In this document: piece after piece, positions 53,947 to 60,241 of the stretch | Position numbering within the stretch: position 1 is the first letter of the stretch | How the letters are laid out: every line of letters starts with the position of its first letter | Virus record (IMG/VR): IMGVR_UViG_3300027278_000003 | DNA length: 64,000 bases | Direction: 5' to 3' (one strand) | DNA from: a virus | Taxonomy: Duplodnaviria > Caudoviricetes | Position numbers and translations under genes: made by a program | Notes under the pieces: generated by a model | Told to the model about the DNA's origin: nothing | The model's input: the letters and a program-made list of their open reading frames with translations, nothing else | Databases searched by the model: none

Positions 53947-54270
53947 ATGCTTTTCACAGAGAGTGCCGCAGCGCGGGCTAAAGAACTTCTTGTAGAAAAT
54001 GAAGCAGACGAAACAGTTGCACTACGTGTGTACGTAGAAGGTGGCGGTTGTCACGGCTTTAACTATGGTTTTGGCTTTGACAACAATATTGCAGAAGATG
54101 ATACCGTTATTGAAACAAACGGAGTTAAACTAGTAGTAGACAGCATGAGTATCATGTATCTAGATAGCGCAACTATCGACTTTGTTTCTAGTATGCATGG
54201 CGATAGATTCACTATTGATAACCCAAGCGCGGCGACTACATGTGGTTGCGGATCAAGTTTTTCCATGTAA
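53947..54270 (+). CDS. erpA: A-type Fe-S carrier (ErpA/IscA family)
   Basis: FTESAA, LRVYVEGGGCHGFNYGF, VVDSMS..YL, IDF, NP.A..TCGCGSSF. Confidence 0.85.
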   Translation: MLFTESAAARAKELLVENEADETVALRVYVEGGGCHGFNYGFGFDNNIAEDDTVIETNGVKLVVDSMSIMYLDSATIDFVSSMHGDRFTIDNPSAATTCGCGSSFSM

Positions 54271-54318
54271 GTTGATGAATAGTATAAATACTATATCAAA
54301 CTTTTAAAGGAGTGGCGT

Positions 54319-54771
54319 ATGTCCAGAGTTCTTAAATGGTGGCTTGTTTTCTGTATTTCATTAGTAATTGGCTATCTCGCATATTTTTTCGGGTGGGTTG
54401 ATGAAATCTACAGTAAAGACACTACTAAACTAAGTTTTGCAATCCTAGCAATTTATGTAGCAGCAAGTTTACATGTAGGACACGCCACTTTTAAAAAATC
54501 AAAAAAACAATCAGTCAGATCAGCAGCAAACGTAGGTTGGTTCCTAAGTGAAACTATGCTTACTCTTGGTATGATAGGTACAGTTGCAGGTTTCATTCTG
54601 ATGTTAGGATCTAGTTTCGAAAACATCGATACAAGTAATGCTGAGTCATTAAAAGAAGCATTAACTGCAATGGCGCTAGGTATGAGCACCGCACTATATA
54701 CTACACTTGTTGGTCTAATTTGCAGTCAAATACTAAAAATACAACTTGTAAATCTAGAAACAGGAGACTGA
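54319..54771 (+). CDS. MotA/TolQ/ExbB proton-channel family membrane protein
   Basis: LGMIGTVAGFILML...GMSTALYTTLVGLI; TATAAATA late promoter at 54283. Confidence 0.75.
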   Translation: MSRVLKWWLVFCISLVIGYLAYFFGWVDEIYSKDTTKLSFAILAIYVAASLHVGHATFKKSKKQSVRSAANVGWFLSETMLTLGMIGTVAGFILMLGSSFENIDTSNAESLKEALTAMALGMSTALYTTLVGLICSQILKIQLVNLETGD

Positions 54772-54772
54772 T

Positions 54773-55486
54773 ATGGAGTCTCCAAACAGATACAAAAGTT
54801 CAACTGGTATGACTGATTTGCTATTCAATCTTCTGGTTGGATTTGTGTTCCTGTTTGTCGTAGCATTCATTCTTATCAACCCCCCAACTAAGAGAAACGA
54901 TATTCCAACAAAAGCAGAATATCTAATAATCATCGAATGGAACGAAGAATTCAACGATGATGTAGACCTGTGGGTTCAGGACCCGAACGGTGTGAAAGTT
55001 GCATTTATGAACAAAGAAGGCGGCTTGCTAAACTTAGAGAAAGACGATTTGGGATATTCTAATGATACGTTCACCCGTCCCGATGGAACCACTGATGTTT
55101 TACGTATAAATCGTGAGGTAGTCACGATGCGCGGAACACAAGCAGGTACGTATTCAGTTTCAGCACATATATATTCTAGAAGCGTCACTAGATTGGCGGA
55201 TGGGGTTGTTACCGCTGACCCAGGTCCGGGAACAATAAAGTTTACACTAATCAAAGTCAATCCTTACAAAGAATCATTTATTGCAGAATACGAATACACT
55301 GCAAGACGACAAGAAATTCCAATGATTGAATTCACACTTGATGATCAAGGAAACATCATTGACATACAGCCACTAAGACGTAGTATTATAACTGGGCGTG
55401 CAATACATCAATCTGATGCAGCAGGTGGGTCACCAAATACACCCGCAACAAATACTATTAGAACACCAACAATACACGGCCCATAA
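54773..55486 (+). CDS. Single-TM partner protein (MotB/ExbD-like TM Asp, unknown periplasmic domain)
   Basis: MTDLLFNLLVGFVFLFVVAFILI; DVDLWV.DP; AGGAG RBS. Confidence 0.55.
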   Translation: MESPNRYKSSTGMTDLLFNLLVGFVFLFVVAFILINPPTKRNDIPTKAEYLIIIEWNEEFNDDVDLWVQDPNGVKVAFMNKEGGLLNLEKDDLGYSNDTFTRPDGTTDVLRINREVVTMRGTQAGTYSVSAHIYSRSVTRLADGVVTADPGPGTIKFTLIKVNPYKESFIAEYEYTARRQEIPMIEFTLDDQGNIIDIQPLRRSIITGRAIHQSDAAGGSPNTPATNTIRTPTIHGP

Positions 55487-55502
55487 TCACAAGGAACATG
55501 CC

Positions 55503-55994
55503 ATGACAAGTTATAATCTTGATCTATTACCTTTATTAACATCTGTTGTATTTCTTACAATTGTTGTACTTTGGATTGCTGTTAAGAATTATAAAAATTT
55601 CATTATTACATTCTTGATCATTCCGCTAACACTTGTAGCAGCAATCGTGTCGCATTCAACAGTTGATAGATTGTTAGGTTATCCTGTGCATGGGGCAATC
55701 GACAAAGATAGTCTGTACTTATTCCACGTAGAGAGTGGTGACAGAGAATGGATTTATGTATGGGTAATCGCACCCGATGATTTGGGCGAGGTTAGACCAC
55801 GTGCAATTGCCATAGCTAATACAGAGCAAAATAGAAAAGCGATGCAAGAAGCCCAAGAGAAGGGCGAACAAGGACAACCTATGTCTATTGGTCAAGAAGG
55901 ACAAATGGAACTAGGCAATAATGGCGAAACAAATGGTGGAGAATACGAAGTATACGACTTCCAAATCAATCATTCGCCTGATCTAAAAAATTGA
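55503..55994 (+). CDS. Two-TM membrane protein
   Basis: Two hydrophobic helices, then GYP; AAGGA RBS. Confidence 0.6.
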   Translation: MTSYNLDLLPLLTSVVFLTIVVLWIAVKNYKNFIITFLIIPLTLVAAIVSHSTVDRLLGYPVHGAIDKDSLYLFHVESGDREWIYVWVIAPDDLGEVRPRAIAIANTEQNRKAMQEAQEKGEQGQPMSIGQEGQMELGNNGETNGGEYEVYDFQINHSPDLKN

Positions 55995-56059
55995 CAAAAT
56001 GCTTGACAATATTATAGTATTGTAATATAAAGAATGGTAAAATAACAACGGAGAGTGCA

Positions 56060-56242
56060 ATGAGTGATCCAGTCGTTGACGAAAAGCCACTATCAAGTAT
56101 AGAGTGGACTATACTATGCGTACTAAACCAAGAAATCACCGATCTTAAAGTTAAACCTAAACCATCTAACCAAGAACAAGTTGTCATTGACTGGCTGCAA
56201 GAACGACTTGATCGACTCAACGCACGACGACATAAAAACTGA
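56060..56242 (+). CDS. Small hypothetical protein
   Basis: GGAG RBS; TTGACA promoters just upstream. Confidence 0.55.
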   Translation: MSDPVVDEKPLSSIEWTILCVLNQEITDLKVKPKPSNQEQVVIDWLQERLDRLNARRHKN

Positions 56243-56493
56243 TGCAAAATAACATAATTGATGCCCGAGAAATGTTCCTCGGAAGAGCCTTGCTTGCTGC
56301 ACTAGACGCAAAGATAAATGCATACAAAGAACAATACCGTTCCTACTATCTATTAGTAGAAGAATACGGCGAAGATTTTATAGAGTTGAGATTGCATGAC
56401 CTCAATGAAGACATGCACATTGTAATTGACAAAGCACCTATGATTGTATATCTTGAAAGGCAAGAAAATGGACAGGCACTCTTTGAAATCTAA
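56242..56493 (+). CDS. Small hypothetical protein
   Basis: TGATG coupling. Confidence 0.55.
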   Translation: MQNNIIDAREMFLGRALLAALDAKINAYKEQYRSYYLLVEEYGEDFIELRLHDLNEDMHIVIDKAPMIVYLERQENGQALFEI

Positions 56494-56652
56494 CGACGAA
56501 CTACTAAAGCAATTCATTAAGATGCGCAAGTGGAGTAAACCCACCTATGAGCAAATGATGGAATATCTTGAAATATACTCGGAATTGACTATTCGAGGTG
56601 CGATATCTGACTAAAGTCATAAATAAAAGTATAAGATAATTAAAGGAAAGTT

Positions 56653-56724
56653 ATGACATACGAACTTGTTACATCGCAAACATCAACAACACTGGGTAAT
56701 AACCCAGCGAATGATGCTGTGTGA
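56653..56724 (+). CDS. Putative leader peptide MTYELVTSQTSTTLGNNPANDAV (all 5 Thr codons are ACA)
   Basis: AAGGAAAG RBS; late promoter TAAATA at 56620; followed by competing hairpins. Confidence 0.45.
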   Translation: MTYELVTSQTSTTLGNNPANDAV

Positions 56725-56725
56725 C

Positions 56726-56790
56726 AGGGCGTAGACGATAACTAGACTAAAAGTTACGAAACGCCCTCAGAAAAAAATCTGAGGGTTTTT
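56726..56790 (+). terminator. Intrinsic terminator overlapped by an alternative (antiterminator-like) hairpin
   Basis: CCCTCAG(56764)/CTGAGGG(56779)+TTTTT; AGGGCGT(56726) pairs with ACGCCCT(56761). Confidence 0.7.
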
Positions 56791-56801
56791 CATTTTTTAT
56801 G

Positions 56802-57244
56802 TTGACGAATCATAAAGAATGAACTAAATTATATAAATGTGATGGTCACTGACACAAACCAAAACATCGGGTTGTTCCGTAACGGACACGTGAGAGGTCA
56901 CGGTTAGCTTCTCATTCAGAGTATCCGACAGCGTTAAGGTCGGGCGGGGAGCGTCACTCATTATGATACACGCAAACTGACATTTGGGGAAAAATCTGTC
57001 CCGTGGTGGCGACCACATCTGAAAAAAGTTCTTGACGAATCGGATAAGTTTTGATAAGTTAAGAAAGTTGCGAGAGGGCAAAGGCTAGTAACCAGATGCA
57101 CTCGTAACAAAAAAGAAAAAAAGTTCTTGACAAAGACAAAATAGTTTGTTAGAGTGAGGAACATCAGAAGCGAAACGTGAGTTTCAAAAAAACTTCTGAA
57201 AAAGAAAAAAAGTTCTTGACAAAGACATTAAGTTTTGTTAGAGT
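56802..57244 (+). promoter_or_regulatory. Four tandem sigma70 promoters driving the ncRNA/tRNA locus
   Basis: TTGACG-N17-TAAATT (56802); TTGACG-N17-TAAGTT (57032); TTGACA-N17-TAGAGT (57127 and 57216, duplicated with A-tract UP elements). Confidence 0.75.
56837..57020 (+). ncRNA. Unidentified multi-stem RNA
   Basis: Non-coding; stems GTGATG/CGTCAC, TGAGA/TCTCA, TCCGAC/GTCGGG, GTGGT/ACCAC. Confidence 0.4.
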
Positions 57245-57252
57245 TAGGAACA

Positions 57253-57578
57253 CGCTGTTTGAAAATTTAGAATGTCTTAATCTTCTAGACTTCGGTCGAT
57301 AATGAAGATGGAAACAGATTTTATCTGTTTTCAATTGTGTATTAAGAGCAAAGAAACGTGACAGGTAGGTAGGCTCCTAGGAGTAACGAACCCGTAAAAT
57401 CCTGGTGAGGGACCGAGCGTTGACGAATATGCAATTGTAAACAGAGTTTAAAAACGGCACCTGAGAACGAGTTGCTAGGCAGAAGTTGAACCGTGAAGAT
57501 GGCAGAAGTTCAACTACTCAGTAGAGGGTCACCTATACAAAGCCGTTTTTGTCTATTGCCTGGTGAACAATAGACAAA
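57253..57578 (+). ncRNA. Unidentified structured RNA(s) in the tRNA leader
   Basis: GAC-TTCG-GTC tetraloop, GAAACAGAT/ATCTGTTTT, AAAAACGGC/GCCGTTTTT, AGTTGAAC/GTTCAACT, TTGTCTATTG/CAATAGACAA. Confidence 0.45.
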
Positions 57579-57585
57579 TTTTTAT

Positions 57586-57661
57586 TCCCAGATAGCTCAG
57601 TCGGTAGAGCAAATGACTGTTAATCATTGGGTCGGCGGTTCGAGCCCGTCTCTGGGAGCCA
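57586..57661 (+). tRNA. tRNA-Asn(GTT)
   Basis: Acceptor TCCCAGA/TCTGGGA, anticodon loop CT-GTT-AA, GGTTCGA, encoded CCA. Confidence 0.95.
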
Positions 57662-57666
57662 ATATT

Positions 57667-57756
57667 GGAGGGGTGGCAGAGTGGTTGATTGCACCGGTCT
57701 TGAAAACCGGCGTAGGCGAAAGTCTACCGTGGGTTCAAATCCCACCCTCTCCGCCA
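57667..57756 (+). tRNA. tRNA-Ser(TGA)
   Basis: CCGGT-CT-TGA-AA-ACCGG, long variable arm, CCA. Confidence 0.95.
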
Positions 57757-57758
57757 AA

Positions 57759-57980
57759 TTGGCCCTTATAGCTCAGTTGGTAGAGCAACGAGGTTATTCA
57801 TGTGAATGTTGTGGTATAAGCGAATGGCAGGGTAAACCAATCGTTTTAGAATGCGATCATATTGATGGCAATCACAAAAACAATACACCTGAAAACTTAC
57901 GATTAATTTGCCCAAATTGTCACAGTCAGACGGAAACCTATAAAAACAAAAACATAGGTAAAGGTAGATCGTATAGATAA
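57759..57980 (+). mobile_element. HNH homing-endonuclease domain/remnant fused in frame to the tRNA fragment
   Basis: RGYSCECCG..W.GKPIVLECDHIDGNHKNN..ENLRLICPNCHSQT. Confidence 0.8.
57762..57787 (+). pseudogene. 5' tRNA fragment (nt 1-26), identical to the start of tRNA-Thr at 58050
   Basis: GCCCTTATAGCTCAGTTGGTAGAGCA is an exact 26-bp direct repeat. Confidence 0.85.
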
Positions 57981-58049
57981 AATTTAAATTTTAGCGTATT
58001 AGGAACAACTTTTCGTTCTAAATGCTAAATAATTATATACGAAGATAAT

Positions 58050-58167
58050 GCCCTTATAGCTCAGTTGGTAGAGCAGTTGATTTGAAAGCACACGCGATAA
58101 CGATAGGTTCACAAGGTGTGTTTTCGTAATCATCAGGTCCGCGGTTCGAGTCCGTGTGAGGGCACCA
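58050..58167 (+). tRNA. tRNA-Thr (TGT, or CGT) interrupted by a 42-nt hairpin in the anticodon loop
   Basis: Acceptor GCCCTTA/TGAGGGC-A-CCA, normal D and T arms; removing 58084-58125 gives a canonical 76-nt tRNA with loop TT-TGT-AA. Confidence 0.8.
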
Positions 58168-58177
58168 TTCTTCTTAT

Positions 58178-58262
58178 GCGGATATGGCGAAATTGGTAGA
58201 CGCACTAGATTTAGGTTCTAGCGGGGTAACTCGTGGGGGTTCAAGTCCCTCTATCCGCACCA
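58178..58262 (+). tRNA. tRNA-Leu(TAG)
   Basis: CTAGA-TT-TAG-GT-TCTAG, variable arm, CCA. Confidence 0.95.
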
Positions 58263-58362
58263 AAAAATTTAATACCTCTGTGTCCAAATCATCATGAAAT
58301 GGTTCACAGTAAATATAAAAATGAAGTTACGCCTTTAATAGAAAGGCAAATTTCAGAAAAGT

Positions 58363-58436
58363 GGGGAATTGGTGAAGCGGGATCACGCTAGATTTGCATT
58401 CTAGAATCACGAGTTCGATTCTCGTATTCTCCACCA
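58363..58436 (+). tRNA. tRNA-Ala(TGC)
   Basis: G3:U70 pair, A73, CTAGA-TT-TGC-AT-TCTAG, CCA. Confidence 0.9.
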
Positions 58437-58455
58437 AACATATACTGGAAATTGT

Positions 58456-59196
58456 ATGAAGTATCGCTTGCCGTTCACAAAAGAAACTACATATACTAGA
58501 CATGGCTGGTTTCAATATGCTATGGTACTAAGTTTACCATTTTCTTTTTATTTTTTAACATTAGAACAATGGGTATACAGTCTTTTAGTCGGCTATGTGT
58601 TAGCTATAATTGGTCAAATTGTAGGTCACCATAGATATTTCAGCCATAGAAGTTTTAAACTAAACATCTTTTGGCACTATGTTTTATGTTACTTAACAAC
58701 AGTATTATCTATCGGTAGTGTATTAGAGTGGAGAAGAATGCATCTAGCGCATCACAAATACTCAGATACACAATATGATCCACATTCACCAACGTATAAA
58801 GGTATTTTAAAAGTATTTTTTATATCATGGTTTGATTACCCACAGGGTGTGGCTATCTCCGAAGAATCTGAAAAACTTAAATCAGAAAAAGGTATAGTAT
58901 TCTTTCATACATACTATGTATATATTATACTTTTTCATATTGCAATAGTTTCATTGATTGATCCTAAGTTGCTTTATGCTTTATACTTTTTCCCTCCGTT
59001 TCTTGCGTTAAGTATGGGTTCACTAGTGAATTCTCTTTTACACAATGAAAATGGACCGAAAGACAACATATTACTTGCATTTATTGCAGGAGGCGATGGT
59101 TATCATGCAATTCATCACGAAAAACCGTATTTGGCAACCTATCCTTTCCCAGATTTAGCAGGAATGATCATATCATTGATTAAAAAGAAAGAATAG
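58456..59196 (+). CDS. Membrane fatty-acid desaturase (delta-9 type)
   Basis: His boxes HHRYFSH, HLAHHKYSD..DPHSP, YHAIHH; TM segments. Confidence 0.85.
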   Translation: MKYRLPFTKETTYTRHGWFQYAMVLSLPFSFYFLTLEQWVYSLLVGYVLAIIGQIVGHHRYFSHRSFKLNIFWHYVLCYLTTVLSIGSVLEWRRMHLAHHKYSDTQYDPHSPTYKGILKVFFISWFDYPQGVAISEESEKLKSEKGIVFFHTYYVYIILFHIAIVSLIDPKLLYALYFFPPFLALSMGSLVNSLLHNENGPKDNILLAFIAGGDGYHAIHHEKPYLATYPFPDLAGMIISLIKKKE

Positions 59197-59213
59197 TATA
59201 AATAAACGTATAA

Positions 59214-59288
59214 GCGGGCGTAGCTCAGTGGTAGAGCGTCACCTTGCCAAGGTGAGGGTCGTGAGTTCGAATCTCATCGCCCGCTCCA
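59214..59288 (+). tRNA. tRNA-Gly(GCC)
   Basis: GCGGGCG/CGCCCGC-T-CCA, TCACC-TT-GCC-AA-GGTGA. Confidence 0.95.
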
Positions 59289-59366
59289 AATTCCTAGCAT
59301 ATGATTTGACTATGCCATTCGGGTAACATACTTCCCGTTGAAACAATCACAAAAGTCACTGCTTTA

Positions 59367-59442
59367 GGGAGATTAGCTCAGTTGGTAGAGCGTCTCGTTT
59401 ACACCGAGAATGTCAGGAGTTCGAGTCTCTTATCTCCCACCA
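59367..59442 (+). tRNA. tRNA-Val(TAC)
   Basis: GGGAGAT/ATCTCCC-A-CCA, TCTCG-TT-TAC-AC-CGAGA. Confidence 0.95.
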
Positions 59443-59496
59443 TTTCACTTTCTCAAATCAGATAAATACCGTATAAGTTCTTTATGGGAGAAAGTC

Positions 59497-59757
59497 ATGA
59501 TCAAGCGTACAGGTTTAGCAAAAAGAGTGTCGGCGAAAGCGGCTCCTACTAAAAACGTATCTACACGTAAAAAAACAATTACAAAAACTGTCGAAGCAGA
59601 GGCTGCGCCAATGTTTACATTTAACATCACTGCTGGTGTTGAAAATCTAGGTTCAGTTATTGAAGCAAACGAAGAAGCAGCACTTGCGAAAGCAAGAAAG
59701 AAATTCGGCGCGCCATTAAATTATGGTGTGTTCCAATATACAGCAAAGCGTGTATAA
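59497..59757 (+). CDS. Small Lys/Ala-rich late protein
   Basis: GGGAG RBS; TAAATA at 59463. Confidence 0.6.
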   Translation: MIKRTGLAKRVSAKAAPTKNVSTRKKTITKTVEAEAAPMFTFNITAGVENLGSVIEANEEAALAKARKKFGAPLNYGVFQYTAKRV

Positions 59758-59897
59758 TTAAAGTTTCCAAACGTCAGTTGACGGCGTGACTGTTAGGAGA
59801 GACTAACATTTAAACTACATTTATGTGACGTAACCTTACTTAGAGTATGAAGTGCGTATCACCGAAACTTCCCAAGACATTCTAAATTTTTAAACAC

Positions 59898-59974
<77 letters not shown>

Positions 59975-59983
59975 TTTTTAATT

Positions 59984-60010
59984 GCGGTTGTAGCTCAGTT
60001 GGTTAGAGCA
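59984..60010 (+). pseudogene. Second orphan 5' tRNA fragment (acceptor 5' strand plus D arm)
   Basis: GCGGTTGTAGCTCAGTTGGTTAGAGCA, then breaks off before tRNA-Asp. Confidence 0.7.
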
Positions 60011-60019
60011 TTAAATAAA

Positions 60020-60094
60020 GGACTGTTGGTTTATCGGTTAGAATTCTCGCCTGTCACGCGAGGGAGACGGGTTCGATTCCCGTACAGTCCGCCA
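60020..60094 (+). tRNA. tRNA-Asp(GTC)
   Basis: GGACTGT/ACAGTCC-G-CCA, CTCGC-CT-GTC-AC-GCGAG. Confidence 0.93.
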
Positions 60095-60166
60095 TTAATA
60101 AGATATACTATGACAAATACCGGTACCGTTTGTGGAAAGTGATAACAGTTATAGTATATCTTTTAT

Positions 60167-60241
60167 GGCCCGTTCGTCTATCGGTTAGGACGCTAGGTTT
60201 TCAACCTAGAAAGAGGGGTTCGATTCCCCTACGGGCTACCA
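60167..60241 (+). tRNA. tRNA-Glu(TTC)
   Basis: GGCCCGT/ACGGGCT-A-CCA, CTAGG-TT-TTC-AA-CCTAG. Confidence 0.93.

Follow-up and report, generated by a model that had tools for sequence, protein, structure and literature searches.

The 64,000-nucleotide (nt) window of IMG/VR virus record IMGVR_UViG_3300027278_000003 (Caudoviricetes) contains, between a late-type promoter motif and a cluster of noncoding RNA (ncRNA) and tRNA genes, a leader in which a short open reading frame (ORF) is followed by an antiterminator strand and an intrinsic terminator. The chances seem to us about even that this element is a transcription attenuator of the leader-ORF kind, in which the progress of a ribosome over several sorts of codon would decide whether late transcription goes on into the cluster; the reading comes from the sequence and from models of RNA folding. 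The record, which derives from marine metagenomes, is 342 kb long, 39% G+C and 92% complete. An initial annotation of the window had proposed a narrower device, an attenuator that senses threonine through the codon ACA and gates the tRNA locus. All the elements it named are present at the locus: TAAATA, a Shine-Dalgarno (SD) sequence, a 23-codon ORF with five ACA codons (three of them encoding part of TSTT) and a stop codon 1 nt before AGGGCGT lie exactly where it had put them, and the inner hairpin CTGGGT/ACCCAG alone is offset, by one base to the left, to 56692-56707. The elements are the following.

56618-56625 (+): CATAAATA, in which TAAATA begins at 56620
56619..56639 (+): late-type promoter motif, ATAAATA and then the conserved AAAGTATAAGATAA, kept in all leader-bearing relatives
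56643-56650 (+): SD-like AAGGAAAG, 5 nt before the ATG, as read from the sequence
56653..56724 (+): leader ORF MTYELVTSQTSTTLGNNPANDAV, 23 codons plus TGA (ATG at 56653, TGA at 56722-56724), from the sequence and the ORF list
56656, 56671, 56680, 56686, 56689: ACA codons of the leader ORF, three of them within TSTT
56649..56690 (+): segment 1, the 5' arm of a long hairpin, over the start codon and codons 1-13 (all five ACA lie here)
56692-56697 / 56702-56707 (+): apical hairpin CTGGGT-AATA-ACCCAG, encoding LGNNP
56709..56743 (+): segment 2, the 3' arm of the long hairpin, with the stop codon, AGGGCGT (56726-56732) and TAACT (56739-56743)
56752..56767 (+): segment 3, AGTTACG..ACGCCCT (ACGCCCT at 56761-56767), the antiterminator when paired with segment 2
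56763-56771 / 56778-56786 (+): intrinsic terminator (3:4), GCCCTCAGA / 6-nt loop / TCTGAGGGT, followed by T5-CA-T6, to 56798
56802..56830 (+): first sigma70-type promoter of the ncRNA/tRNA cluster, TTGACG, a 17-nt spacer and TAAATT
57586..60241 (+): tRNA array for Asn, Ser, Thr(UGU), Leu, Ala, Gly, Val, Pro, Asp and Glu (ARAGORN and Rfam)
58050-58166 (+): tRNA-Thr(UGU), with a 42-nt insert inside the anticodon (ARAGORN intron mode)

The leader transcript, beginning just downstream of ATAAATA and ending at the terminator, would measure roughly 160 nt, and the module as a whole about 170 nt. The RNA genes lie downstream of the terminator on the same strand as the leader, and among them is the tRNA-Thr(UGU) gene on which the initial annotation had relied. 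An nhmmer search of this genome found the leader nowhere else.

If the element is an attenuator, it would work as follows. With no ribosome on the leader, segments 1 and 2 would pair, as would segments 3 and 4, and transcription would stop. A ribosome that reached the stop codon (56722) would cover segment 2, allowing 3:4 to form, and again transcription would stop. A ribosome slowed on the codons of segment 1, however, would hold 1:2 open while leaving segment 2 uncovered; 2:3 would then form first, sequestering the CCCT required by the terminator, and RNA polymerase would continue through the sigma70-type promoters into the stable RNAs and tRNAs. The signal would be slow decoding of codons read by the phage's own downstream tRNAs, with ACA and tRNA-Thr(UGU) as the heaviest input in the clade to which this phage belongs (clade A, below), and the outcome would be a demand-driven late synthesis of the tRNA/ncRNA cluster.

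Predicted competing RNA structures

The region 56632-56792 folds with a minimum free energy (MFE) of -54.1 kcal/mol and a z of -9.15 relative to 200 dinucleotide shuffles, none of which folds as well. The attenuator geometry claimed in the initial annotation holds and is stronger than was described there: the whole leader ORF is enclosed in one long imperfect hairpin, the 1:2 element, which had been overlooked. Its helices in the MFE structure are AGTTAT/ATAACT, TACG/CGTA, CTTGTTACAT/GTGTGACAGG, GCA/TGC and TCA/TGA, and a 1:2 protector hairpin over the ORF is predicted in all the variants found in related phages. Segment 2 can pair with either segment 1 or segment 3, and at its base the 5' strand of the terminator consists of the last 4-5 bases of segment 3. 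The calculated pairing energies are -34.8 kcal/mol for the 1:2 domain, -15.2 for 2:3 and -14.6 for 3:4. As modelled, the locus has all four segments of a textbook attenuator.

The competition itself had been described as one between AGGGCGT/ACGCCCT and a 7-bp terminator stem that would lose four of its pairs. A single base (C, 56725) separates the stop codon from AGGGCGT, and CCCT is indeed shared exactly between ACGCCCT and the 5' strand of the terminator; the stem is a GC-rich one of 9 bp, followed by a T run, with 4-5 pairs contested. In clade B the antiterminator and the terminator overlap by 6 bases. When segment 1 is masked, the nascent RNA ending at segment 3 adopts 2:3 in every variant. 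A 2:3 hairpin as good as the natural one arises in 6 of 1000 dinucleotide shuffles for the window, in 2 of 1000 for L002 and in 80 of 1000 for L117.

The module in related phages

Relatives were sought as contigs of uncultured phages, from metagenome assemblies, that carry homologues of the upstream 83-amino-acid (aa) protein in the same gene order. The module was found in seven sequence variants that fall into two clades, clade A (the window, L006, L002, L008 and L010) and clade B (L117 and L128-130, the last three being IMG/VR contigs). The order is conserved throughout: late-type ATAAATA promoter, SD, an ORF of 22-27 codons, hairpin, and antiterminator/terminator pair, and in every leader-bearing phage the sigma70-type promoter that opens the ncRNA/tRNA cluster follows directly. 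This holds across considerable divergence, the 84-aa neighbour protein falling to 46% identity in clade B. Nucleotide identity within the leader is 88-100%, compared with 68-79% in the flanking genes. The contig of L006 stops within segment 3; over the part that it covers, its leader is the same as that of the window except for one A-to-G change in the promoter-proximal motif, although the flanking protein is only 67% identical.

The gene upstream of the module differs from phage to phage, being a 48-aa gene in some and an Asp/Arg-hydroxylase gene in others, but the module always accompanies the RNA cluster, and we therefore take it to belong with the latter. In the leaderless relatives L018, L113 and L125, and at the second tRNA cluster of this phage, the motif ATAAATA-AAAGT.TAAG directly abuts the sigma70 promoter, so that the module looks like an optional insert between a late-type promoter and RNA genes. 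L031 lacks the motif at that junction and has it directly before tRNA-Thr.

Each of the hairpins has been maintained through sequence change. The apical hairpin is kept in all variants, one of its pairs being G-C, A-U or G-U in the window, L002 and L117, respectively; in L008 and L010 two apical pairs are lost and one basal pair is gained. In the terminator helix, 98.5% of the alignment cells are paired over five sequences, and three pairs have changed on both sides, two of them within the stem proper. The upper 2:3 stem exists in three pairing versions (TAACT/AGTTA, AGAAAT/GTTTCT and TGAAAC/GTTTCA), and the lower 2:3 stem, whether AGGGCGT, AGGGTGT or TGGGGG, is in each case complementary to the terminator's 5' strand at its base. 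Compensatory changes are found in 1:2 as well, and several changes in segment 2 (L002, L128) are compatible with both segment 1 and segment 3. For the whole of the terminated state, the share of paired cells is 86%, compared with 35-45% when the partners are slid. The conservation of the full arrangement in related phages makes the observation more than chance.

Among isolate phages nothing was found to resemble the region. BLAST, in near or distant mode, found no match to 56200-57400 among isolate phages, tblastn found none there for the 83-aa protein, and the 237-aa protein matched only distant Rhizobium phages, without synteny. In IMG/VR, scans with these two proteins (83 aa and 237 aa) yielded no confirmed relative and the exact terminator-promoter junction had no match, and the exact word at the start of the ncRNAs returned the L002 contig alone from JGI metagenomes. 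Some candidates were rejected. A scan for GTTACA(N3-6)ACATCAACAACA gave 81 loci, all judged by nhmmer to be chance matches, the best of them (L075) lying inside a coding gene; the hydroxylase homologue P0013 stands in a different, non-syntenic context; and L017 has a gene directly after the hydroxylase, with no leader.

Possible translation of the leader ORF

Across all six sequences examined, a single frame is open, and it is that of the leader ORF. An SD-like purine run and an ATG are kept in every variant, the letters of the SD varying (AGGAAC, GAGGAT, AAGGAAT), and the ORF ranges from 22 to 27 codons. The stop codon, TGA or TAA, adjoins or sits within segment 2 in all variants; in clade B the upper 2:3 stem starts with these three bases. 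Each of the three indels within the ORF is a multiple of three (p = 0.037), while three 1-nt indels are found just outside it. In the alignment, substitutions within the ORF are spread equally over the codon positions, with no third-position bias, and the peptide varies freely except for LGNNP, which coincides with the apical hairpin. The lack of third-position bias fits selection on the act of translation rather than on the peptide, and the pattern as a whole is the one expected if the ORF were kept for the sake of being translated.

Codons, tRNAs and what the leader may sense

All five threonine codons of the leader, out of 22 codons, are ACA (p = 0.03, given that ACA makes up 50% of the threonine codons of the genome). 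Ten of the 5127 small ATG-initiated ORFs in the genome have at least five ACA codons, and the leader alone has three within four consecutive codons. In the four clade A leaders all 20 threonine codons are ACA, including those gained at variable positions. ACA is the phage's main threonine codon, with a share of 57% in genes behind ATAAATA, against 49%. A tRNA-Thr(UGU) lies behind the leader in L002 and in L008 (where it occurs twice), the clade A relatives whose contigs reach the array, and the clade B array encodes one also.

The split tRNA-Thr(UGU) is the sole threonine tRNA found in the 342-kb record. A contig from an RNA library, X22, which is 90-95% alike, joins position 58083 to 58126, omitting 42 bases; it may represent the uninterrupted tRNA of another organism. 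Uninterrupted copies of tRNA-Thr(UGU) are found in L002, L008 and L031.

The correspondence between the leader and the tRNAs extends beyond threonine. By strict wobble rules, 17 of 22 leader codons in the window match downstream anticodons (background 0.45, binomial p = 0.002, empirical p = 0.02), as do 19 of 25 in clade B. The clade B arrays encode additional tRNAs (Gln-UUG, Gly-UCC, Met/Ile-CAU and Arg-UCU), and codons read only by these make up 6 of the 25 codons of the clade B leader (p = 0.015) as against 1 of 22 in the window. In each clade the leader appears to carry its own set: a core of ACA and UCA near tRNAs Thr-UGU and Ser-UGA, and CAG, CAA, GGA, GGG and AUA where Gln-UUG, Gly-UCC and a CAU tRNA have been added. 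Overall, the broader anticodon match has p of about 0.002-0.04. It is conceivable, and we put it forward tentatively from sequence comparison, that the phage uses the leader to monitor its own tRNA supply, as a codon-barcoded sensor that by attenuation would boost exactly the matching tRNAs. Two other functions considered for the leader, ACA as a cleavage motif of the MazF type and the AAC repeats as an Hfq site, were dropped, since neither feature is conserved in clade B.

Weighing attenuation against other explanations

A number of observations weigh against attenuation. The initial annotation had proposed the folding energies of the two states as a check. Taken separately, the three pairings have the energies to be expected of an attenuator, but when a 30-nt ribosome mask is placed over the TSTT codons, equilibrium folding still predicts the terminator. 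Any switch to read-through must therefore be kinetic, and no thermodynamic switch is claimed here. The contested pairs in the window are the lowest of the terminator's nine, and when an upstream antiterminator is forced, its energy ranks 4th of 43 among the terminator-like hairpins of the genome, so it is no outlier. Covariation is modest, the five pairs changed on both sides being equalled by 30 of 500 shuffles, and clade A is near-identical, perhaps because the region has been shared by recombination; the number of independent versions is in effect two or three. L018, L113, L125 and L031 lack the module, as does the phage's own second tRNA cluster, and it is thus dispensable. Four sigma70-type promoters follow the terminator, and a late-type motif stands directly before tRNA-Gly at 59198; with these, the element can only modulate late read-through, and the initial annotation went too far in making it the gate of the tRNA locus. 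Finally, clade B (L117, L128) keeps the switch with two threonine codons (ACT and ACA) and no ACA run, and the codon-match test was made post hoc, in phages where favoured codons and tRNAs are correlated anyway.

The evidence of clade B bears on what would be sensed. The initial annotation had named homologs without the ACA run and the alternative pairing as evidence against itself: clade B lacks the run and retains the pairing. It had also proposed to check related phages for conserved ACA codons and covarying stems: the codons are conserved in clade A but form no run in clade B, and the stems show compensatory changes. Specificity for Thr(ACA) is then not a conserved property of the element. 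The absence of the run from clade B, together with the broad anticodon match, favours a sensor of decoding speed over several codons, with ACA weighing heaviest in clade A.

The explanation that best survives beside attenuation, though we think it unlikely, is that the locus encodes a stable, structured late small RNA (sRNA) of about 160 nt whose own terminator stops it constitutively, with no regulation of what lies downstream. It would be a further stable RNA among those around the tRNAs, and perhaps dual-function, its small ORF being incidental or auxiliary. The very strong fold would be natural in such an RNA, as would nucleotide conservation above that of neighbouring genes, and the locus adjoins unassigned structured RNAs (56837-57578) that are covered by exact RNA-library contigs. 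The tRNA region of phage T4, which also encodes stable non-tRNA RNAs, provides a precedent. Moreover, a liberated attenuator RNA can act in trans, as has been reported for rnTrpL (PMC6614838). An sRNA, however, would need neither an SD nor an ATG, nor would it call for indels in multiples of three or for a stop codon pinned to segment 2 in two diverged clades, and it leaves unexplained that both have retained, with different sequences, a strand able to pair with the terminator's base.

Doubtful also is a strict version of the attenuator, similar to thrL, in which charged tRNA-Thr(UGU) would be the only thing sensed. Everything said above about ACA speaks for it: the three codons in TSTT, the unanimity of clade A, the preference of the phage for this codon (50% overall, and more behind ATAAATA) and the presence of tRNA-Thr(UGU) in the arrays of the window, L002 and L008. 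But five ACA out of five is worth no more than p = 0.03 given codon usage, the clade B switch does without the run even though its array includes tRNA-Thr(UGU), and the run is located in the hairpin's apical third, where a stalled ribosome does not free segment 2 in equilibrium folding. Furthermore, the other codons of the leader match downstream tRNAs as well, the fit being to the whole set of them and not to threonine alone.

It is quite improbable that the module is an ordinary tiny late gene for a functional peptide of 22-27 residues with a normal terminator, its RNA structure serving messenger stability or translational control. One would expect of such a gene a conserved ORF with an SD, and LGNNP is invariant or nearly so; also, the terminator does close the upstream gene string, a terminator scan having found no other on the plus strand from 54000 to 56760. 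Outside LGNNP, however, non-synonymous changes are as common as synonymous ones, the length of the peptide is variable, and the module travels with the RNA cluster, not with the upstream gene. That an ordinary terminator should have acquired by chance a short ORF and a complementary heptamer upstream is scarcely credible: the features are weak singly (the codon p of 0.03, the rank of 4 in 43, and an open frame of 22 codons, which is common), but two clades, with seven variants in all, share their full arrangement, the pairings show compensatory changes, and the fold has a z of -9.

Promoters, downstream RNAs and neighbouring genes

The motif NATAAATA occurs 70 times on the coding strand and 19 times on the other; in most cases an SD and ATG follow it at 20-50 nt. 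The base before ATAAATA on the coding strand is G in 39 of 70 cases and T in 13, and the dominant late-type motif of the genome is GATAAATA rather than the T4 form, TATAAATA. The late promoter of the initial annotation is plausible on these counts; the word "late" is owed to the likeness of the motif to T4 TATAAATA and to its position before structural-type genes. An extended motif, ATAAATA followed by 3 nt and GTATAAG (or GTAGAAG), recurs at RNA-gene junctions. It may define late promoters of a special class, or else signal where stable RNAs start or are processed. Its sites are as follows; negative numbers are window coordinates of genome positions outside the window.

56619 (window): ahead of the leader
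59198 (window): before tRNA-Gly
59462 (window)
-5942: before the sigma70 promoter of the second tRNA cluster
-80535
L031 3719: before tRNA-Thr

Four sets of metatranscriptome contigs were compared with 55500-58500, the blank over 55500-56800 not being counted as evidence; for the leader by itself, no RNA data set was listed as containing it. Contigs from RNA libraries, shallow ones that may include DNA, extend across 56801-57577, most of them exact (56801-57076, 57085-57268, 57169-57432 and 57451-57577). The first of these contains both hexamers (-35 and -10) of the first sigma70 promoter, which no transcript begun there would carry. The structured RNAs ahead of tRNA-Asn (56837-57578) are probably abundant in nature; they match no Rfam family. 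Between the shared ncRNAs and tRNA-Arg(UCU), L008 (7560-8070) and L010 (7420-7930) have about 500 nt more, G+C-richer and ORF-free, that are missing from the window and could be another large structured RNA.

Beyond the window, the genome encodes a tRNA with the amber-reading anticodon CUA (labelled Pyl by ARAGORN; G000:C1 132737-132811) and a tmRNA (185943-186373), and a clade B array behind the leader also has a CUA tRNA (L130 4667-4743). Within the array, an HNH endonuclease ORF lies between tRNA-Ser and tRNA-Thr (57759-57980) and a short HNH-like remnant between tRNA-Leu and tRNA-Ala (58233-58391); this is typical homing-endonuclease traffic inside a tRNA array.

The Asp/Arg beta-hydroxylase (PF05118) mentioned above is a protein of 199-203 aa; in four relatives its gene is flanked by the 48-aa gene and by the leader or late motif. 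The gene is missing from this phage and from L006, a clean presence/absence difference just upstream of the leader.

L002 6367-6966: hydroxylase gene
L008 6367-6975: hydroxylase gene
L010 6227-6835: hydroxylase gene
L018 3001-3612: hydroxylase gene

Relation to known attenuators and significance

The closest parallel in layout is the thrL attenuator of enterobacteria (RF00506), with its leader ORF of threonine codons, a stop codon by the stems, mutually exclusive 1:2, 2:3 and 3:4 pairings and an intrinsic terminator; in both cases ribosome stalling would be expected to lead to read-through. Unlike thrL, the present leader has fewer threonine codons (5 of 22), all of them ACA, it follows a phage late-type promoter, its antiterminator overlaps only the base of the terminator, and what it would control are RNA genes rather than biosynthetic enzymes. 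A likeness of TTLGNN to TTGNGAG, at the end of the thrL peptide, carries no weight in the argument. The Rfam model Thr_leader (RF00506) gives no match on 56600-56810 up to E = 10. His_leader (RF00514) gives a full-length alignment at 56680-56794 with 18.9 bits and E = 0.44, below its gathering score of 49; the order of codon run, stems and terminator is alike, but there are no histidine codons, and the likeness is one of layout only. Rfam places the leader in no known family and shows no T-box match.

The leaders of ilvGMEDA and ilvBN mix regulatory amino acids, and slow decoding of any of them relieves termination. The present element would be multivalent in the same manner, its codons matching a broad set of downstream tRNAs. 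It would differ in that those leaders respond to the supply of amino acids and control biosynthetic operons, whereas here the presumed input is the supply of tRNAs and the output tRNA genes. Feedback from the state of tRNA to genes for translation, by way of a terminator and an antiterminator, is found in the pheST attenuator (with its pheM leader) and in T-boxes. The former, however, controls a synthetase and not tRNA genes, and T-boxes, which are found mainly in Gram-positive bacteria, bind uncharged tRNA directly and, unlike this element, have no leader ORF. Classical attenuation is known from amino-acid biosynthesis and from a few operons for synthetases; to our knowledge, it has been described neither for tRNA genes nor for the late transcription of phages, and a full-text literature search found no publication on attenuation of phage tRNA genes. 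If the mechanism is true, then, ribosome-mediated attenuation that feeds back on tRNA genes would be new relative to the literature searched.

Why phages carry tRNA genes, and how they set their levels, is an old open question. The compactness of the module, the existence of natural variants with and without it, and the different codon sets of the two clades make it well suited to swaps. If the proposed mechanism is true, the ribosome would measure the speed of decoding on chosen codons and tune the transcription of the matching tRNAs, and, if the leader is indeed a codon-barcoded sensor, the phage could by this means answer host defences that deplete or cleave tRNAs.

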